53,998 bases of DNA from Escherichia phage vB_EcoM_DE15: sequence record NC_079184.1. One strand, given 5' to 3'. The notes under the pieces are model-generated. The model saw only the letters and a list, made by a program, of their open reading frames with translations, had not been told where the DNA came from and searched no databases. Position 1 is the first letter of the stretch; every line of letters starts with the position of its first letter. This document shows, piece by piece, positions 7,827 to 44,229 of this stretch. The position numbers and the translations under genes were made by a program.

Positions 7827-7848
7827 ACATTAGTTGAATGTGAATAAC
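7827..7848 (+). promoter_or_regulatory. Phage promoter-like motif ACATTAGTTGAATGTGAATAAC
   Basis: Motif family member 18 nt upstream of next gene. Confidence 0.45.
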
Positions 7849-8306: not shown

Positions 8307-8342
8307 TTATCAGGGTGCATTTACGAGTGTACCCGAATAATC

Positions 8343-8363
8343 CAATTAGTTGGATTTGAAGAG
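8343..8363 (+). promoter_or_regulatory. Phage promoter-like motif CAATTAGTTGGATTTGAAGAG
   Basis: Motif family member. Confidence 0.45.
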
Positions 8364-8432: not shown

Positions 8433-8810
8433 ATGGCACAATATTCAGATGTAAACACTGGCATTATCGGTCCTAACGGCTTCAAGAAAGACCCAAAACA
8501 TCCTGACATTCGTGGACGTATTAACGTTGACGGAATCTGGTATTGGGTATCTGGCTGGAATAAGCAAGCAAATGGTAATGAGTTTACCTCACTTGCATTG
8601 ACCATCATGACTCAGGAACAGGTTGATGAAATGATGCGTAAGCGTGAAGAGAAAGCTAAAGCCAAAGCTCAACCTCAAGCCGCTGCACAACAGCAACAGC
8701 AACGTCAGCAACCTTCTGCTGCACAGCAACAGCAAGCTCCTGCTCAACAACAGCAGGGTAATTACAATCCGAACGAGCCGAAAGGCTTCGACGACGACAT
8801 TCCATTCTAA
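8433..8810 (+). CDS. Small protein with Q/A-rich linker and C-terminal DDDIPF (host SSB acidic tip); SSB-like or SSB-tail mimic
   Basis: C-terminus NEPKGFDDDIPF matches the E. coli SSB tail; preceding low-complexity Gln-rich linker. Confidence 0.55.
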   Translation: MAQYSDVNTGIIGPNGFKKDPKHPDIRGRINVDGIWYWVSGWNKQANGNEFTSLALTIMTQEQVDEMMRKREEKAKAKAQPQAAAQQQQQRQQPSAAQQQQAPAQQQQGNYNPNEPKGFDDDIPF

Positions 8811-8932
8811 TTGGGGATGCCCTATGAAAATTCTATGTTTTATAGGGCTACATAATTGGGAAATTTCACATGAAAACGATTATGTAACCTTTTGGGTTTG
8901 TAGGCATTGTTCAGCAATGCGTGAGGAATATC

Positions 8933-9829
8933 ATGGCAACTAACGTTATTGAAATACCTGCCAACTTAGTCAAAACTGGCGACGTTGTAATTCATGAAGG
9001 TAAAGAGTATCTGATTGGGTATGTCTTCAGAATGGGTGTAGTTCAACTGCAATATTCTGGTGGATGTTTCAATTTTGAGTGGGACCAGGCAGTCAAAATC
9101 TTGGATAAACGTCCTACTACAGACTCCTTTGCAAAACCGGGCGCAACAACACGCGCAGTATTGGCAAGTCAAGTTCGACCCGGCAACACTTTATCTTATG
9201 GAATCAGGCTCTTTAAGATAAAGGAAGTTAAAGACCTGGGGGAAAGTGAGGTTCGCTTAATCCACGAAACAGGCTACTTTGACTTTTTACACAACCGCGT
9301 AGTCCATATTGTTAACGAGCCACCAGCTTTGGAAACTCCAACAATGGCATTCAACACCGAGATAAAGCCAGTGTTCCTTCCTTACGAGGGAGCAGTGAAA
9401 CCATTCTCAGATGAAGAAGATGTTAAAGGTGCTGATGTTGAAGTTGGCGATGTTATCCGGTATAAAGGTGATTGGGCAACTGTCACAAATGCGTACAAAC
9501 ACCCAAATTCACCATACAATAAAATCAATATTAACTACGGCGACGTAAAAGGTTTGCAAGTACGTCTGATATTAACTGGAACTTATTCGAGAAAGGTAAG
9601 AGCAGTAATGGAAACATTAAATATTCAAAATGCAATCGAAGCACAACGTATTCTTCTGCAAAAGCTGGAGCAAATGCTTGATTTAACCCAGCTTCCTCCA
9701 ACAGAAGATGGCAAGATGGCAATTGGCAATGCATCAATTCGTGTGGACAAGGCAACAGTTGTTAAAGCCGCACGCGATGAAATGAAAGCTGCCGCAAACA
9801 AATCAGCAGAGCTTATCAAGAAGCTGTAA
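8933..9829 (+). CDS. Hypothetical protein (~298 aa; ORF track gives GTG 8921)
   Basis: ATG 8933 with GAGGA RBS. Confidence 0.5.
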   Translation: MATNVIEIPANLVKTGDVVIHEGKEYLIGYVFRMGVVQLQYSGGCFNFEWDQAVKILDKRPTTDSFAKPGATTRAVLASQVRPGNTLSYGIRLFKIKEVKDLGESEVRLIHETGYFDFLHNRVVHIVNEPPALETPTMAFNTEIKPVFLPYEGAVKPFSDEEDVKGADVEVGDVIRYKGDWATVTNAYKHPNSPYNKININYGDVKGLQVRLILTGTYSRKVRAVMETLNIQNAIEAQRILLQKLEQMLDLTQLPPTEDGKMAIGNASIRVDKATVVKAARDEMKAAANKSAELIKKL

Positions 9830-19030: not shown

Positions 19031-20794
19031 ATGAACGTCAAGCAATGTGTGGCTAAGATTAAGCACGATGTACCAGACTGTAAATCCACATCTGGCAAGT
19101 CTTTACAGGTTTGGTTGAATGTCGATGAAGCTGGTAATAAGAACTTCTCTGGTTACTGCTTTGCGTGTGGCGTTCTAGTACCAAATCCTTATGGCAATAA
19201 TCCGGAGAACATTCCAGAGATTAAAGTCAAAACTCCAGAAGAAATTCAGGAAGAAGTTGATGAAATCACTGCTTGTCCTCCGTTTGATTTAACCCATCGC
19301 AGCATTGAGCCGGAGTTCTGGAAAGCTGCTGGTGTTCGACTTCTGTATTCAGAGTATGATGGTAAGACTCCAAATGCTCTGGCACATGGCTACACCAAAA
19401 ATGGTAAACTTGTTCGTTGGAAGATTAAACTTCTGAACAAGAAAGTTATGTGGTCCGTTGGCGACACCCAGGGTAACGACCCTTACAACTGGATGGCTGC
19501 AAAAGCAATTGGCGGTAAGACACTGTTCATCACAGAAGGTGAAGAAGACTGTATCGCATTGCGTCAAATCCTCAAAACCATGAACCGTGGTGGTGCATAT
19601 GAAGATTTGGATTTTGCTGTAATTAGTTTGAGTGACGGGAGTGATTCCGTACACAAATGTTTGTCACCAGTTGCAGAAGAAATTAAGCAACGTTGGGAGC
19701 AGGTTGTTATTGTATTTGATGACGATGAACCTGGACGTAAAGCTGCAAAAGAAGCATGCCGATTGTTGCCTGGTGCAATGATTGCAACTCTTCCGGCTAA
19801 CGATGCCAACGATTGTTTGAAGCGTGGCTTGCTCAAAGCTACTCAATCTGCTGTTGTATTCCGTGCTGCTCGTCCTCTACCTACAGCACTTGTCAATAAA
19901 GAACTTCTTATGGAAGAACTTGATGATGAGGTTGAACAAGGTGTGGACTATCCTTGGCCCAAGTTAACCGACTTAATGTTTGGTCAACGTCGAGCCGAAG
20001 TTATTACAATCGGTGGTGCAGAAGGTGGTGGTAAAACTACGCTGTCCCGTCAGATTGTGCATCACAACATTACCAAGCATGATTGGGGAGTGTTTACTGC
20101 ATACATGGAGGAAACTCCTACAGAAACATTGCGCCGAATGGCTGGCCTCAATGACAACTTGCCATATTGGGAGCCTGCGTTTACTCGTGAAGACCCTCGA
20201 TATGATGAAGCTAAGTTCCGTCAAACTGCTGCGAAGATGCTTCGTAACATGGAGATTTGGGACCGCAAGCAAGCTGGAGAAGACCCTTATGAAACCTGGG
20301 ATGGGTTAAAGACGATTCTTCGTCAGATTGGACCAGACATTGATATGTTTGTCCTTGATAACTTAACCTACTTATCGGAAGGGATTTCTGCCTCAGAGAA
20401 GAACGACTTCTTAGGTAAGCTGTATGCAGATATTACTAAGCTGGCAGACCAATATCAGTTCCATGTAAATATTCTGTCGCACCTTAACCCTGTGGCAAAA
20501 GGTCAACGACCTCATGAGGATGGTGGACGTATTAAGAAGTCAGACTTTACTGGCTCCCGTGCTGCTGCTAAGTATTCTCATGGTATGTTCGGCTTTGAGC
20601 GTAATAGCCAGGCAGTTGACCCAAACTGTTCTATCATTCGTTCTATTAAGGCTCGTAAGAGTGGTAAAACAGAAGGCTTCAAAACGTACTACGACACCGA
20701 ATCTGGTCGAATCATTCAACGTTCTTGGGATGACTCGCTGTTCGAAACTAAAGAGATTGTTCAACTTACCAAGAAGAACGGTCCTCATCAATAA
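19031..20794 (+). CDS. DNA primase/helicase (T7 gp4-like)
   Basis: N-terminal Cys zinc finger, TOPRIM FITEGEEDCIAL, Walker A GGAEGGGKTT. Confidence 0.85.
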   Translation: MNVKQCVAKIKHDVPDCKSTSGKSLQVWLNVDEAGNKNFSGYCFACGVLVPNPYGNNPENIPEIKVKTPEEIQEEVDEITACPPFDLTHRSIEPEFWKAAGVRLLYSEYDGKTPNALAHGYTKNGKLVRWKIKLLNKKVMWSVGDTQGNDPYNWMAAKAIGGKTLFITEGEEDCIALRQILKTMNRGGAYEDLDFAVISLSDGSDSVHKCLSPVAEEIKQRWEQVVIVFDDDEPGRKAAKEACRLLPGAMIATLPANDANDCLKRGLLKATQSAVVFRAARPLPTALVNKELLMEELDDEVEQGVDYPWPKLTDLMFGQRRAEVITIGGAEGGGKTTLSRQIVHHNITKHDWGVFTAYMEETPTETLRRMAGLNDNLPYWEPAFTREDPRYDEAKFRQTAAKMLRNMEIWDRKQAGEDPYETWDGLKTILRQIGPDIDMFVLDNLTYLSEGISASEKNDFLGKLYADITKLADQYQFHVNILSHLNPVAKGQRPHEDGGRIKKSDFTGSRAAAKYSHGMFGFERNSQAVDPNCSIIRSIKARKSGKTEGFKTYYDTESGRIIQRSWDDSLFETKEIVQLTKKNGPHQ

Positions 20795-20859: not shown

Positions 20860-22794
20860 GTGTTGTATCCTTGGGAAAACATGTACGCCAGTGACATTGA
20901 AACAACTGGCCTGTTGGAGCAAATGCGTAAGCAAGCTGCACCACGTCTTCACAACATTGGATATATTGATGTTCTGACTCGTGAAGAAACTGTAATAGAG
21001 TGGACCGACAGAAAATCTATCCAAGCATTTCTGGATACAGGCCCAACATTAATCATGCACAACGGCGCAACCTTTGACTTTGAAGCACTGAGGTTCCTAG
21101 GCTACGACGTTTCAAAATGTACACTAATTGATACTTTGTTTATCAGTTGGTATCTGCAACCTCGTCGTGTTAAGCACGGCTTAGAAGGTTACGGCGAAGA
21201 GTTTGGTGTGCCAAAACCAGTCATTGAAGATTGGGAAAATCAAACTCAAGAAGAGTACAACCATCGTGTGATGGAAGACTGCAAGATTCAGTTGAAGCTG
21301 TGGGAACAGCAATACATTCAACTCTTGAAGATTTATAAATCTCCTAGCGAAGTTAAGCGCTTCGTTGAATATCTGATGACAAAAGCTCGTCAACAAGTTA
21401 TTCAACAACGTACTCGCTGGAAGCTGAACATTGAGAAGGCATTGGCGTTTAAGGCCAAGCTGGAGCCAATGATTAAAGAGAAGACGGACGCATTGGAAGC
21501 ATCAATGCCGCGTGTTCCGGAATACGTTATCAAAACCCGTCCAGCTAAATGCCACAAGATGAACGGGCAACTGTCTGCCACTGGAATTAAGTGGAAGGCC
21601 ATTTGTGATGCAAACGGTTTGGACTGGAAAGACCCAGACTTAGCTATCAAGGTTCTTAAAGGCTATAAGAAGCCTAATGCTGGTTCACATGTTCAAATTA
21701 AAGATTGGTTGTTCAGCTTAGGCTGGGAACCAGAAACCTTTAAGTTTGACCGTAATAAGGAAACAGGTGAAACTCGCCAGATTCCACAAATCACTGTGAA
21801 GGATGAGGATGGCAATCCTGAAATATGTCCGAGCTTGCATAAGCTGGCGGAAAGAAACCCCGACTCTGGTATTCAACATCTTATTGGGATGGGCGTGTAT
21901 AAACACCGTCTGTCTGTTGTTAATGGCTTCCTTCGCGACGTCGATGAAGATGGGTTCCTTACTGCACGATGCGGTGGCCTTACCAATACTTTACGCCTTA
22001 AACATCGCGAACTTGTTAACCTCCCTTCTATTCGTGTATTTGGCGGTGAAGAACTGCGTTCAATGTTGGAAGCGTGGCGCGAAGACTACGAACAGTTAGG
22101 CTCTGACTTGTGTTCTCTGGAAGACCGCTGTAAGCACCACTTCCAGTGGATGTATGACCCTGAATACGTTAAGAAGCAGTTGGCACCAGACTATGATGCT
22201 CACCTTGCAATTGGCGTGATTGGTGGATTCATTACTGAACAAGAATCCCAGGACCACAAGGACGGAATTAAGAAGTGTAAACAACGTCCAATGTTTAAGA
22301 CCACAAACTATGCTTGTCAGTATGGTGCTGGTGTACCAACTGTAGCTCGTTCTGCTGGCTGTGACCAGACTACTGCTGCACGACTGCATAAAGCATATTG
22401 GGACTTGAACTGGTCTATTAAAGAGATTGCTGCAAACACTAAAGTGGTAACAATTGATGGTCAGATGTGGCAACAGAATCCAGTAAACAAATTCTGGTAT
22501 TCACTGCGTACAGAGAAAGACCGCTTCTCCACATTGTGTCAGGGTACTGGTGCATATGTGTTTGATGTTTGGTGCAACAACATCATTGCAATTTGTAATG
22601 AACGTTGGGGCTGTGACCCACTTCTGTCCGGACAATTCCACGACGAATTGATTCTCCAAGTTAAGAAAGGTTTCCGTGATTTGTGGACGGACTTGCTTAA
22701 TGAGGCAATGGACCGAACCAACAAAGAACTTAAACTTAACCGTGATTGTGCATGTGATGTGCAGTTCGGTGATAACTACGCGGAGATTCACTGA
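20860..22794 (+). CDS. Family A DNA polymerase with 3'-5' exonuclease domain (644 aa)
   Basis: Exo I DIETTGL; motif B KQRPMFKTTNYACQYGAG; motif C QFHDELIL. Confidence 0.8.
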   Translation: MLYPWENMYASDIETTGLLEQMRKQAAPRLHNIGYIDVLTREETVIEWTDRKSIQAFLDTGPTLIMHNGATFDFEALRFLGYDVSKCTLIDTLFISWYLQPRRVKHGLEGYGEEFGVPKPVIEDWENQTQEEYNHRVMEDCKIQLKLWEQQYIQLLKIYKSPSEVKRFVEYLMTKARQQVIQQRTRWKLNIEKALAFKAKLEPMIKEKTDALEASMPRVPEYVIKTRPAKCHKMNGQLSATGIKWKAICDANGLDWKDPDLAIKVLKGYKKPNAGSHVQIKDWLFSLGWEPETFKFDRNKETGETRQIPQITVKDEDGNPEICPSLHKLAERNPDSGIQHLIGMGVYKHRLSVVNGFLRDVDEDGFLTARCGGLTNTLRLKHRELVNLPSIRVFGGEELRSMLEAWREDYEQLGSDLCSLEDRCKHHFQWMYDPEYVKKQLAPDYDAHLAIGVIGGFITEQESQDHKDGIKKCKQRPMFKTTNYACQYGAGVPTVARSAGCDQTTAARLHKAYWDLNWSIKEIAANTKVVTIDGQMWQQNPVNKFWYSLRTEKDRFSTLCQGTGAYVFDVWCNNIIAICNERWGCDPLLSGQFHDELILQVKKGFRDLWTDLLNEAMDRTNKELKLNRDCACDVQFGDNYAEIH

Positions 22795-23050: not shown

Positions 23051-23917
23051 ATGGCATTTGCTGCTCCTACACTGGCCTCGAACAAGACTCCTTCTGCTGC
23101 ACCATTACTGGAAGCGGGTGGTTATCCTGCTCGTGTTTGCCGTATTATCGACCTGGGCTTACAGCCTGGTTCTGCTAAATATCCTACTCCGTCCCTGAAA
23201 CTTCTGGTGACTTTCGAACTGCTCGACGAGTACATGAAAGAAGTTGACGGTGAGGGCAAAATGGTCATGGTTCAAGACCCAGACGAAGATGACGGCATCA
23301 TGATGGCGAAGAATCTTGAAGACAAGCCGCGTTGGTTTGACTTTGAGTTTACCTATAATGCTGACGGCTTCATGGGTGAGAACTCCCACATCTACAAATT
23401 CGCTAAGGCGATTGATGCACTGGAAGTTAAACCTAACCTGGAACAAGGCATTCAGGGCCATCCTGCCAAGAACCTGCCGGACTGGTTGGGCGAACCTCTG
23501 ATTGTTGGCATTGTTCAATATACCAAGCAGTCAGGTAAGAATGCTGGTCAGGTTGCGAACAAAGTTGCTACCTTCTCCCCGATGAAGTCTAAAGAGAAGA
23601 AAGAAGCTAAAGCCCTGGTTAACCCGACTGTCTTCTTTGACATGTCCGAGCCGGACTTAGAAGTATTCAACAAACTGCCAGGTGGCGAATCTCCGTATGC
23701 AATCAAGAACCGTATTACTTCCGGTGTTGATTTCTACAAGACTAAGCTGTCTGCACTGTTAGGCGGTAAACCTGCCGATGAAGGTGCTGTACCGAATCAG
23801 GCCTCTGATGAAGAAGTTGATGCAGCTATGAAAGCTGAACTGGAAGCACAGGCTGCTGCAAAAGCACAGCGTGAAGCGGAAGGTGGTGCTGCTGGCGGTA
23901 CGGGTATGCCGTTCTAA
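23051..23917 (+). CDS. Highly expressed 288-aa protein of replication module; possible ssDNA-binding protein
   Basis: Host-like codon usage; acidic Ala-rich C-terminal region ending in Phe; position between polymerase and exonuclease. Confidence 0.3.
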   Translation: MAFAAPTLASNKTPSAAPLLEAGGYPARVCRIIDLGLQPGSAKYPTPSLKLLVTFELLDEYMKEVDGEGKMVMVQDPDEDDGIMMAKNLEDKPRWFDFEFTYNADGFMGENSHIYKFAKAIDALEVKPNLEQGIQGHPAKNLPDWLGEPLIVGIVQYTKQSGKNAGQVANKVATFSPMKSKEKKEAKALVNPTVFFDMSEPDLEVFNKLPGGESPYAIKNRITSGVDFYKTKLSALLGGKPADEGAVPNQASDEEVDAAMKAELEAQAAAKAQREAEGGAAGGTGMPF

Positions 23918-23927
23918 TTATAAATAT

Positions 23928-23951
23928 GGCTCCTTCGGGAGCCTTTAATTT
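23928..23951 (+). terminator. Perfect UUCG-tetraloop hairpin (GGCTCC-TTCG-GGAGCC) followed by TTTAATTT
   Basis: Read directly from sequence; sits 11 nt after the upstream stop. Confidence 0.55.
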
Positions 23952-23964
23952 GGAGCTTACCAAA

Positions 23965-24987
23965 GTGAGTAAGAAACGAGTTTTGTTGCTGGTTGACGGC
24001 GACATGGTTGCATTCAGTCACTGTGCTGCTGAGGAATACGGCAAAGATTCAGAAGATATTAACTTTGCTAAGATTCAAATGTCAATGGATTCCAAGATGG
24101 AATTCCTTGCGAAACGTGTAGGAGCTACAGAAGTAGTTACCTGCATTTCACCATCCAAAACATTCCGTAACGTTCTCGCCGAGAATTACAAAGGCAATCG
24201 TGATGACGTATGGCGACCAGAAAACTTGAAGAATGCGAAAGCACATCTTATGGTTGCCTGGAACGGTGTATGGATGAAAGGTCTGGAAGCAGATGACCTT
24301 CTTGCTGTATTCGCACGTCATGAATACGAAATGACAATGGGTAAACGTAATGAGATTAAGAGCCTCAAGCGCATTGGTCCTTGCACATATGATGAAGTCT
24401 GGATTGCGTCGTTGGACAAAGACTTGCGACAAATCGGGCAGAACGGTAGTGTTGGTCCAGTAATTAAACATTATCAATGGGAACGAGAAACCCAGGGTAT
24501 TGGTGAGAAGGTTGTAACTCCGAAGGATTACGGCGAACTCAAACTAATCATCAAGGACAATGGCAAGTCGAAGAAGAAAGAAGTTAAGGGCAATGGCCCT
24601 AAATTCTTCTTGCATCAATTGCTTATTGGCGACTCAACGGATAACGTTATGGGTTGCGGAGTTCTTGAAGAAAGAATTTACAAAACTGGTGCCAAAGCCG
24701 GAGAAACTTATTTCCGTCGTGATGGCATTGGTGCAGTTGCTTCATTCGAAATGCTGGATGGTACAACATCCTATGCAGAAGGTTTGAAGAAAGTTATTGG
24801 TGCATACATTATGCGCTTCGGAGATGGTTGGGAACAAGAGCTGCTCAAAGTGGGCCGTCTTGTTTACATGCACCATCAAATTGAAAAGGGTAATTGTGTT
24901 CGCTTGTGGCATTACAAGAACATTAACGAATACTTTGACCTTAAAGAGAATCGTATCCTCACTCAAGAAGAGTACCTCCAGAAATAA
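23965..24987 (+). CDS. 5'-3' exonuclease (FEN / T7 gp6-like); GTG start after hairpin (ORF track ATG 23926)
   Basis: LLLVDGDMVAF N-terminal acidic motif; GGAG RBS before GTG 23965. Confidence 0.7.
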   Translation: MSKKRVLLLVDGDMVAFSHCAAEEYGKDSEDINFAKIQMSMDSKMEFLAKRVGATEVVTCISPSKTFRNVLAENYKGNRDDVWRPENLKNAKAHLMVAWNGVWMKGLEADDLLAVFARHEYEMTMGKRNEIKSLKRIGPCTYDEVWIASLDKDLRQIGQNGSVGPVIKHYQWERETQGIGEKVVTPKDYGELKLIIKDNGKSKKKEVKGNGPKFFLHQLLIGDSTDNVMGCGVLEERIYKTGAKAGETYFRRDGIGAVASFEMLDGTTSYAEGLKKVIGAYIMRFGDGWEQELLKVGRLVYMHHQIEKGNCVRLWHYKNINEYFDLKENRILTQEEYLQK

Positions 24988-43119: not shown

Positions 43120-44229
43120 ATGCCGTGGCTACGCAGAGTTGAGGTAATAGTTTCACGTAAAGAAGACCCAAGCATTCGAACAATATTTAAATCACATCGT
43201 ATTGATTTTGAAGTTCGTTCTACTGTTGGGTGGCCCGCCGATACAGCAAACATAACTCTGTTTAACTTGTCATTAGAAGAAGTTAAGTTCCTCCAGGACA
43301 AGACCTACGGAGATATGTATATTGAAATTCGTGCAGGGTATGCAGAAGATGAACGTTCGGACTCTGGTGGTGGAACCTCTAGTGGCGGTGTTAAGAAGTT
43401 TGGTCAAAAGGCCGAACAGAGCGACCGCGTAACAGTGTCCACATCACTACCAACCATCTTCTCTGGAATTATTACAAACGCAGTTGGCTACAGAAAGCCT
43501 CCTGAACATGTAACACAATTGTTTTGTATTTCCAAGGCATATGGTGCATCCACTGATTTCAAACAGTTGACTGCAATCAAGCCTGGAACCAAGCTCATTG
43601 ATGCAATGCGCTCAATGTGTTCTGACTATGGATTCAATACCATCTCCACATTTGGTGTTGAAGATTCGGTCCTTGAAACAGTGATGCCTCGTGGGCGTGT
43701 GTTTCATGACACATTCTTAAACGAATTTCGTAACATGCTTGGCGAGTATAACTTGCTATACACTGTTACAACTGGTGAAGTGCAAATCTTCCCAGACACC
43801 TTTGGTGATAAAGATGCAGTAAACAGAATGTCCAAAGACAGAGAGCCAGTTAAGCTGGATGCCAACTCAGTCATTGGAAACCCTGTTGCTGGAATCTGCA
43901 CCTACACTTTAAACACATTCCTAAACCCATCTTTCCAACCAGGGATGATTCTTGATGTATCTCCTTTGCTTGGAGACAAGCTACTTGCCAATGGTGTGAC
44001 CTCTGTTTCAGGGGAAGGTATTGTACTCAATACAGACCAGTCCGTATTCCGGTGGGCTGTTGAAGACAAATACTTTATCATGGAAGTTGTGCATAAAGGT
44101 TCGACTCACACAACCACTTATCAAACATCAATCACTGCAATATTGGGTGGCAATACAATGATGGGTGGTAAGGAAGCTGCGTGGCAGGAAATGTATGCTA
44201 ACAGTGGAATGGCAATGGAGTCATTTTAA
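43120..44229 (+). CDS. Baseplate-proximal virion protein (Mu gp43-like by position)
   Basis: Position after tape measure. Confidence 0.35.
   Translation: MPWLRRVEVIVSRKEDPSIRTIFKSHRIDFEVRSTVGWPADTANITLFNLSLEEVKFLQDKTYGDMYIEIRAGYAEDERSDSGGGTSSGGVKKFGQKAEQSDRVTVSTSLPTIFSGIITNAVGYRKPPEHVTQLFCISKAYGASTDFKQLTAIKPGTKLIDAMRSMCSDYGFNTISTFGVEDSVLETVMPRGRVFHDTFLNEFRNMLGEYNLLYTVTTGEVQIFPDTFGDKDAVNRMSKDREPVKLDANSVIGNPVAGICTYTLNTFLNPSFQPGMILDVSPLLGDKLLANGVTSVSGEGIVLNTDQSVFRWAVEDKYFIMEVVHKGSTHTTTYQTSITAILGGNTMMGGKEAAWQEMYANSGMAMESF

Follow-up and report, generated by a model that had tools for sequence, protein, structure and literature searches.

A small Chaseviridae phage protein with a host-type SSB tail and a predicted non-OB domain as a probable minimal single-strand DNA-binding protein

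The 125-residue protein described here is probably the minimal, non-OB single-strand DNA-binding protein (SSB) of Escherichia phage vB_EcoM_DE15 and would use a host-type tail for partner recruitment; we put the probability of this reading at roughly 0.65. SSBs act as hubs, with a C-terminal tip around which more than a dozen proteins of genome maintenance are organised. The gene lies in a DNA stretch of 53,998 nucleotides (record NC_079184.1), which as a whole is called the window below. It is an intact reading frame in the ORF list, with ATG at 8433 and TAA at 8808-8810, and its product MAQYSDVNTGIIGPNGFKKDPKHPDIRGRINVDGIWYWVSGWNKQANGNEFTSLALTIMTQEQVDEMMRKREEKAKAKAQPQAAAQQQQQRQQPSAAQQQQAPAQQQQGNYNPNEPKGFDDDIPF has a C-terminal end that reads ...NEPKGFDDDIPF, also given as ...QQQGNYNPNEPKGFDDDIPF. 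The parts of the gene and the elements upstream of it are collected in Table 1.

In the proposed mechanism, residues 1-79 would form a four-stranded sheet and one helix, PC4-like in arrangement and belonging, by sequence, to the DUF736 superfamily as one of its divergent branches. Probably dimeric, this domain would bind ssDNA on its sheet through the aromatic residues W38, W42, F51 and Y/F37 and the basic residues K18, R27 and K44. A Gln/Ala linker of roughly 36 residues, predicted to be disordered, would project the FDDDIPF tip, a copy of the host SSB C-terminal tip (SSB-Ct). The protein would coat phage ssDNA, and the tip would then recruit proteins with an SSB-Ct pocket, which may be host replication, repair and recombination factors, the DNA polymerase or primase-helicase of the phage, or members of both groups. 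In addition, the tip probably bends back onto the DNA-binding face and regulates binding as in other SSBs. The gene would be transcribed from its own phage-type promoter, probably ahead of the replication module.

A sequence-only reading of this DNA had pointed to the host SSB tip DDDIPF at the end of the 125-residue protein, to a disordered Gln/Ala-rich linker in front of it, and to an N-terminal portion of about 60 residues that does not obviously look like an OB-fold. Each of these observations holds. The protein ends in the six residues of the E. coli SSB tip, the linker at residues 80-115 has 17 Gln, 7 Ala and 4 Pro among its 36 residues, and residues 81-125 have block-mean pLDDT values of 49-66 in the AlphaFold2 model, as expected of a disordered segment. 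The profile searches and the fold prediction that bear on the N-terminal portion are given below. The stretch after strand 4, counted to the C-terminus, is 60 to 70 residues long in close relatives.

Table 1. Features of the small SSB-like gene and its upstream region in the window
Feature	Coordinates	Strand	Basis
Hairpin GGGTGCA...TGTACCC, just upstream of the promoter motif	8312..8333	+	RNA fold of 8307-8340, -13.3 kcal/mol
Phage-type promoter motif AATTAGTTGGATTTGA	8344..8359	+	Ends 74 nt upstream of the start codon
Complete CDS, small SSB-like protein (ST32 gp19 ortholog)	8433..8810	+	ORF, PHROG 7364, annotated orthologs
Residues 1-59, four-stranded antiparallel beta core, putative ssDNA-binding surface	8433..8609	+	
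Amphipathic alpha-helix TQEQVDEMMRKREEKAKAKA (residues 60-79), possible dimerisation element by analogy with PC4-type dimers	8610..8669	+	Predicted helix 61-79
Residues 80-115, Gln/Ala/Pro-rich disordered linker	8670..8777	+	Composition, pLDDT
Residues 116-125 (EPKGFDDDIPF region) and stop codon, SSB-Ct-like acidic tip with C-terminal Ile-Pro-Phe	8778..8810	+	tblastn, conservation

The window comes from a Chaseviridae coliphage of the genus Carltongylesvirus (phiEcoM-GJ1/ST32-like), and over long stretches it shares 85-95% identity with Escherichia phages SA91KD, ST32, JL1 and phiEcoM-GJ1. The gene is the ortholog of ST32 gp19, which the ST32 paper lists among the putative replication genes (PMC6266442). 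Orthologs of this gene carry the label 'single-strand DNA-binding protein' in about 80 phage records, with annotated hosts in Escherichia, Yersinia, Erwinia, Pectobacterium, Proteus, Pantoea and Aeromonas, and orthologs 80-94% identical are labelled SSB in Escherichia and Yersinia Chaseviridae. The gene is already labelled as an SSB in public records, so its description here is not the discovery of an unfamiliar gene. In phiEcoM-GJ1, the sole stated basis for the label is similarity to YP_024430 and YP_024987, which are proteins of Vibrio phages VP2 and VP5, and the RefSeq record flags the label as 'No experimental evidence'; the label has therefore been passed on computationally from record to record. 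The 'SSB' label would likewise be computational only on thousands of database entries, and no experimental characterisation of the family was found in the literature searched. The protein matches PHROG 7364 over residues 1-91 (profile positions 1-93 of 158; E 2.4e-41, 143 bits), whose name 'single strand DNA binding protein' is an annotation and functionally putative, and it also matches PHROG 18154 (E 5.1e-17). The replication set of the phage is T7-like, with a single-subunit RNA polymerase (RNAP), a primase-helicase, a family A polymerase (PolA), a 5'-3' exonuclease and a ligase. In the window, the primase-helicase lies at 19031..20794, PolA at 20860..22794 and the exonuclease at 23926..24987. 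In relatives that have the T7-like primase-helicase, PolA, exonuclease and ligase, this gene is the only annotated SSB, and tblastn with E. coli SSB and T5 D11 SSB as queries gave no other SSB match in the window.

The resemblance of the tip to that of the host SSB is not due to chance. In a BLASTP comparison with P0AGE0, which we take to be the E. coli SSB sequence, only residues 99-125 align, to SSB 157-178, with 15 of 28 positions identical, and tblastn places E. coli SSB residues 169-178 on 8778-8807. In the NCBIfam models of bacterial ssb, it is the C-terminal end that aligns with residues 40-125, and the scores stay far under cut-off (23.3 bits for TIGR00621, against a cut-off of 53.95). 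Among open segments of at least 40 residues in all six frames of the window, three only end in [ILVM]P[FY], and just the one of this reading frame follows acidic residues. An acidic tip ending in xPF is found in 110 of 120 homologous clusters. Within the same 120, the ending is IPF in 101, DDDIPF in 62, MDFDDDIPF in 25 and EPPMDFDDDIPF in 17, the last being exactly the 12 residues with which E. coli SSB ends. Linker length and sequence differ across homologs. In 20 relatives F119, D120, I123, P124 and F125 are invariant, whereas D, S, E or N occurs at the two acidic positions in between. Of 145 more distant representatives, 104 fit an xP-aromatic tip pattern, and about ten more with APF, CPF or TPF ends are missed by it, which brings the count to roughly 115 of 145. 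Tips vary little among the cultured members, which are phages of E. coli, Vibrio, Acinetobacter, Burkholderia and Microcystis.

The 125-residue protein thus has both elements of an SSB-Ct, a disordered linker and a conserved acidic tip with Ile-Pro-Phe at its end. The site that recognises the SSB-Ct consists of a pocket and a basic ridge, and the conserved Phe, the Ile-Pro-Phe and the acidic run of the family are, as far as sequence conservation can indicate, what such a site would select. The tip is alike in phages with very different replication genes, and in many of them it copies host residues past the hexapeptide; therefore at least some of its targets are likely to be host proteins. A family A polymerase is encoded by every phage group examined and could be a common phage partner of the tip. 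In a full-length contig of 53.6 kb from run ERR4398821, an HNH endonuclease gene is inserted at the SSB stop codon, and this variant has 15 extra residues after IPF. The free C-terminal Phe may therefore be dispensable, if that phage is viable.

The family to which the protein belongs is very large. A profile search of a database of 5.8 billion proteins returned 1,188 family clusters, and an exhaustive HMM search of 1.84 billion representatives at 50% identity returned 5,737 at E <= 1e-3 and 1,885 at E <= 1e-10. Most members are 80-135 residues long and have a variable linker of low complexity between the beta core and the acidic tip, and most are metagenomic with no known host. Some members have two domains in tandem and a single tip, including the 'SSB' of Vibrio phages VP2, VP5 and phiVC8; judged from their sequences, these forms would fit a protein that works as a pair of beta modules. 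One more member is joined, as a fusion, to the C-terminal end of an SF2 helicase.

In unrelated phages, the gene has DNA polymerase, helicase or Erf recombinase genes as neighbours. In Acinetobacter phage DMU1, Klebsiella phage VLCpiS6a and Pseudomonas phage PSA28, the homolog comes directly after the helicase and DNA polymerase genes and is followed by an adenylosuccinate-synthetase gene. In Burkholderia phage Bm1, it lies between the helicase gene and the genes for DNA polymerase and '2-aminooxy adenylosuccinate synthetase'. In Microcystis phage Mae-JY35, it stands directly after the Erf recombinase gene. In Chaseviridae, the gene is found among early small genes, after the RNAP gene and about 10 kb upstream of the replication module.

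The promoter in front of the gene is of a phage type. The motif CATTAGTTGGATNTGA has 10 copies in the window, all on the plus strand, against 0.2 expected by chance. In phiEcoM-GJ1 it carries the annotation 'putative phage promoter 3' ahead of the ortholog, and SA91KD also has it annotated as a promoter; between promoter and ATG, the leader is identical to that of SA91KD. The hairpin just upstream of it is collinear with the annotated rho-independent terminator of SA91KD, which stands directly before the promoter of that phage; the terminator scan missed this hairpin because it has no T-run. A consensus scan for sigma-70 promoters and intrinsic terminators around the gene found nothing relevant.

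Another protein with a comparable tail is encoded in the replication module of the window. It has 288 residues, is encoded at 23051..23917 by a gene flanked by those for the polymerase and the exonuclease, and has a flexible C-terminal tail, ...GGAAGGTGMPF; among its relatives the ending is xPF, xPY or xPW, often behind an acidic run. It is a member of PHROG 862 and also matches phrog_2544, the tail of which weakly matched the small SSB. As a check for an SSB of the gp2.5 or D11 type, hhalign against T7 gp2.5 and T5 D11 was negative, as was a PDB profile search. In its family, DUF669 and phrog_378 give faint matches, each in one of 30 members. No member of that family was found in the DNA retrieved on either side of the small SSB gene in other phages (about 2.5-4 kb each). 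The 288-residue protein might be a second SSB or a protein of the annealase type, which would leave a more specialised role for the small SSB. The position of the gene among early genes counts against a simple replicative-SSB reading, as does this second xPF-tailed protein, which might itself be the SSB of replication.

A first alternative is a role as decoy or hijacker. In this alternative, the protein floods the cell with host-identical SSB-Ct tips and sequesters or redirects partners of the host SSB such as exonuclease I, RecQ, RecO, PriA, Pol III chi, Ung and others, and the effect is shutdown of host replication and repair or protection of phage DNA ends. The hexapeptide is indeed that of the host, as are the last 12 residues in the 17 relatives mentioned above. 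The Chaseviridae gene is located in an early block of small genes resembling those of host takeover, with its own promoter and far from the replication genes (PMC6266442), and another tail-bearing candidate SSB sits inside the replication module. However, a decoy has no need for the strongly conserved aromatic and basic residues of the beta-sheet, and it leaves unexplained the tandem duplication, the helicase fusion and the recurrent siting beside polymerase, helicase or Erf genes. Moreover, the natural variant with the masked tip speaks against a free tip as the whole function. We consider a decoy role unlikely, and less likely than a minimal SSB; the two are not exclusive, as a genuine SSB with such a tip would compete for host partners too. 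The suggestion of a minimal phage SSB in the sequence-only reading is the one favoured by PHROG 7364, the gene neighbours, the helicase fusion, the conserved sheet residues and the predicted PC4-like fold.

Fold prediction, proposed in the earlier reading as a check on the N-terminal domain, was run with AlphaFold2 on an alignment of 62 sequences and gave a beta4-alpha arrangement. The predicted strands are residues 10-14, 26-32, 35-46 and 49-58, the predicted helix is 61-79, and pLDDT exceeds 90; the domain-only model has a mean pLDDT of 91.4 and a pTM of 0.73. Four strands followed by a helix is the element order of the PC4-type topology, and the five-stranded OB barrel is absent from the predicted model. 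The family-invariant or near-invariant residues are G10, N15, K18, H23-P24-D25, G28, G34, W38, S40, W42, F51 and S53, and the beta-sheet bears conserved aromatic and basic residues. The helix is present in the Chaseviridae subfamily, and in many short-form relatives without it strand 4 runs straight into the linker. What the family conserves is therefore the four-stranded sheet, the helix belonging to a subfamily. Since this helix is a defining element of PC4-type dimers, its loss from so many short forms counts against the proposed mechanism. A fold search with the full-length model was noisy from the disordered tail and was repeated with the domain-only model, whose predicted fold we tentatively read as closer to PC4-like ssDNA binders than to the OB fold, for which it gave no structural signal.

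At the level of sequence profiles, the relation to PC4 is faint. When a domain profile of 43 sequences was aligned to human PC4 by hhalign, 32 columns were in register at a probability of only 17%; at this probability, D76-F77-K78-G79 of PC4 is placed on D25-I26-R27-G28, where the largest subgroup reads PDYKG, E87-Y88-W89 is placed on W36-Y37-W38, with Trp at position 38 in 42 of the 43 sequences, and F77 is placed on position 26, which is Tyr in 16 of 43 and Ile in the window protein. W89 of PC4 is a DNA-stacking residue (PMC4350104). The PC4 homolog of T5 is aligned in the same register at a probability of only 4%. The N-terminal domain of the window protein is matched by no Pfam model in a scan to E 10. 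In particular, Pfam PC4 (PF02229) and DUF2128 were absent from the window protein to E 10, from the 145 representatives at E <= 0.01, and from group scans at relaxed thresholds (in one of these, among the best 25 of 33 families). Within the predicted model, the domain is best read as non-OB, and PC4-like topology is the best available description of it; the PC4-like assignment itself rests on the predicted model and weak scores, and we hold it at about even odds. In a separate check, T5.115 was considered as a carrier of such a tail and rejected, as its translation is without it; the annotated SSB of T5 is the separate D11.

To our knowledge, canonical DUF736 proteins have no acidic tip. DUF736 (PF05284) is the only specific Pfam family among the matches of the 145 representatives; it matches 22 of them at E <= 0.01, the best at 3.5e-7, and two representatives, P0121 (23.1 bits) and P0143 (22.6 bits), exceed its gathering threshold of 22.1 bits. 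The matches span the strand 2-4 core (profile positions about 26-73 of 99), and the window protein itself has no DUF736 match even at E 10. At the superfamily level, the domain is therefore a divergent DUF736 relative. DUF736 is a backbone gene of Mesorhizobium ICEs and of conjugative plasmids and is often duplicated (PMC8627217).

A second alternative is that the domain is a degenerate or truncated OB-fold, a barrel minus a strand in a shrunken homolog of bacterial SSB. The NCBIfam ssb models match 35 of the 62 members, with the match starting within strand 3 (residue 40-42), and a hairpin of the form W-x-K-x(3-4)-G-x-x-F-T-S-L is, by eye, like the W88 hairpin of E. coli SSB. In addition, the sole sequence-profile match in the PDB, at a borderline E of 0.012-0.017, covers the region of strands 2-4 and is to the Shiga toxin 2 B subunit; a degenerate OB origin is kept as a minor rival because this subunit is, as we take it, an OB-fold protein. 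On the other hand, the NCBIfam scores are far under cut-off and are borne by the linker and tip, and domain-only sequences match no Pfam SSB family (PF00436 was absent from the window protein, 13 domain-only sequences and the 145 representatives). The OB domain of E. coli SSB is aligned to the domain profile by hhalign at 0.25%, the domain has no detectable similarity to a gp2.5-like OB domain, and the model has four strands and then a C-terminal helix, not the beta1-3/alpha/beta4-5 order. We regard a degenerate OB-fold as improbable.

Similarly doubtful is a role as an ssDNA-binding cofactor. It could serve transcription by the phage single-subunit RNAP, for which PC4, the T5 PC4-like protein, N4 SSB and LUZ7 Drc would be the models, or it could mediate recombination by loading an annealase or recombinase docked on the tail. 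The predicted topology is PC4-like, and proteins of this kind have roles in both transcription and recombination (PMC7549692, PMC8545432), an RNAP cofactor that binds ssDNA has precedent in a phage (PMC7145618), the Chaseviridae gene is in the early region after the RNAP gene, the homolog of Mae-JY35 directly follows Erf, and annealase stimulation in HK620 requires the SSB tail (PMC5928155), but most non-Chaseviridae relatives examined have the gene beside DNA polymerase and helicase, and the tip is a replication and repair SSB-Ct, unlike any known RNAP-binding motif.

With the minimal SSB as the preferred reading, what is new is that the 'SSB' is predicted to be a non-OB, PC4-like/DUF736-related mini-domain with a host-identical SSB-Ct, of which no description was found in the literature searched; the same is true of the very large size of the family. 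A broader proposal, which we advance tentatively and at less than even odds, is that a mobile-element family of at least 5,700 clusters (50% identity) joins the SSB hub peptide to a non-OB ssDNA module of the PC4-like/DUF736 type. If this is true, phages plug an entirely different DNA-binding fold into the host SSB interactome, and evolution has joined the tip, as a portable module, to an unrelated DNA-binding fold. A function would also be suggested for DUF736, an ICE backbone gene, the proteins of which would be ssDNA-coating proteins of ICEs and conjugative plasmids. In addition, a domain of about 60 residues would offer a minimal scaffold to study or engineer recruitment that depends on the SSB-Ct. 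Phage SSBs decide recombineering compatibility and trigger anti-phage defences including Retron-Eco8, DARNA and others, and the preprints on defence triggers concern the SSBs of T7, T5, T4 and SECphi4.

E. coli SSB (PF00436/TIGR00621) shares with the 125-residue protein a DNA-binding domain, a disordered low-complexity linker and an acidic tip in which DDDIPF is identical, and relatives of the 125-residue protein match up to the last 12-13 residues of E. coli SSB. In contrast, the domain of E. coli SSB is an OB barrel of about 115 residues, whereas about 60-80 residues in a beta4-alpha arrangement are predicted here. The linker is Gly/Gln/Pro-rich in E. coli SSB and Gln/Ala-rich here, and E. 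coli SSB is a tetramer, whereas a dimer would be expected here by analogy. 

Among phage SSBs, T7 gp2.5 and T4 gp32 have an acidic, aromatic-ended C-terminal tail that docks the phage polymerase and helicase-primase, and the replisome here is T7-like too; the roles of the gp2.5 tail are summarised in two preprints (bioRxiv 10.64898/2026.02.22.705581 and 10.1101/2025.11.11.687766). However, T7 gp2.5 is an OB-fold protein of 232 residues, its tail is no copy of the host tip, and its domain similarity to the 125-residue protein is undetectable. In HK620 SSB, the last six residues NDYPPF, similar to DDDIPF, are needed to recruit and stimulate the Sak4 annealase on ssDNA (PMC5928155). That SSB is a 21-kDa distant homolog of classical SSBs and an apparent tetramer by elution, and no annealase gene was identified beside the gene of the 125-residue protein in the window.

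The PC4-like binders, which include the human PC4 CTD, the T5 homolog 4bg7, BPSL1147 and YdbC/SP_0782, are small like the domain described here, a dimer is expected for them, and some are found in phages. The [DE]-[FY]-[KR]-G ... Y-W motif of PC4 is in register with the family, with W38 on W89, in the hhalign alignment at 17% described above. DUF736 proteins resemble the family in a further respect, as they also occur on mobile elements that handle ssDNA (PMC8627217).

The small SSB occurs in a natural variant form in which the SSB-Ct tip is masked. On a 53.6-kb contig (L012, Logan ERR4398821; 1501..2380), the stop codon of the orthologous SSB gene is the precise insertion site of a gene for an HNH-type homing endonuclease. 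The stop is lost through this insertion, and APIGLQEGRRYLHCI is added after the ...IPF end. A break at an A-run seems to disrupt the endonuclease reading frame itself. The masked-tip variant comprises the small-SSB clusters P0013 and P0014. Another form of the family is a fusion found in a metagenomic protein of 538 aa (P0265), in which an SF2 helicase (ResIII and Helicase_C) is extended at its C-terminal end by a single small-SSB domain and then by a linker that leads to a ...DSDDLPF tip.

Members of the small-SSB family also adjoin genes for a family A DNA polymerase and an adenylosuccinate synthetase (PurZ-like), as in the loci from Acinetobacter DMU1, Klebsiella VLCpiS6a, Pseudomonas PSA28, and Burkholderia Bm1 phages (L002, L003, L004, and L014) and in the P0133 cluster of the Vibrio phages phiVC8, VP2, and VP5. 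The presence of both genes beside the small SSB suggests that these phages have 2-aminoadenine (Z) genomes. phiVC8 is a known Z-genome vibriophage, and it has a tandem two-domain form of the small SSB. The family may be a regular part of DpoZ/PurZ replication clusters.

Features of the window around and beyond the small SSB gene
Feature	Window position	Strand	Annotation or counterpart
Macro-domain protein, 146 aa	7866..8306	+	PF01661, E 1.5e-8; PHROG 335 'phosphatase'
39-aa ORF (MKILCFIGLHNWEISHENDYVTFWVCRHCSAMREEYHGN)	8824..8943	+	GJ1 gp16 and SA91KD_20
288-aa protein	23051..23917	+	ST32 gp42, 'hypothetical'; PHROG 862/6599
CATTAGTTGGATNTGA copies	569, 2695, 3672, 7828, 8344, 12345, 12486, 12623, 14582, 43080	+	

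The immediate upstream neighbor of the small SSB gene encodes a macro-domain protein and is served by a separate copy of the phage promoter motif (7828-7843); it may be a gene for host takeover or anti-defence whose product processes ADP-ribose. Directly 3' of the SSB gene, the 39-aa ORF runs into the 5' end of the following gene (8921/8933..9829), and its C-x4-H ... C-x2-C pattern looks like a small zinc ribbon. With up to two mismatches allowed, the promoter motif CATTAGTTGGATNTGA has 10 copies in the window, against 0.2 expected by chance, and these agree with elements that the phiEcoM-GJ1 annotation labels 'putative phage promoters'. The first 15 kb (early/middle region) contain nine of the copies, and the remaining one precedes the gene at 43120.

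Of one 5-kb segment of this coliphage-type genome, 84% aligns with 'Staphylococcus phage Pel53' (PP952070.1) at 87.5% identity. The record names Staphylococcus hyicus as host, an assignment that looks doubtful.

The 288-aa protein, whose gene is flanked by those for the DNA polymerase and the 5'-3' exonuclease, may be a second SSB or an annealase-like protein with a docking tail of its own. Its C-terminal end is a flexible Ala/Gly tail, ...AEGGAAGGTGMPF, and in its homologs the last residues are xPF, xPY, or xPW, often preceded by an acidic run. Its N-terminus (GGYPARVCRIIDLGLQP) is reminiscent of that of SSBs of the gp2.5/DUF669 type.
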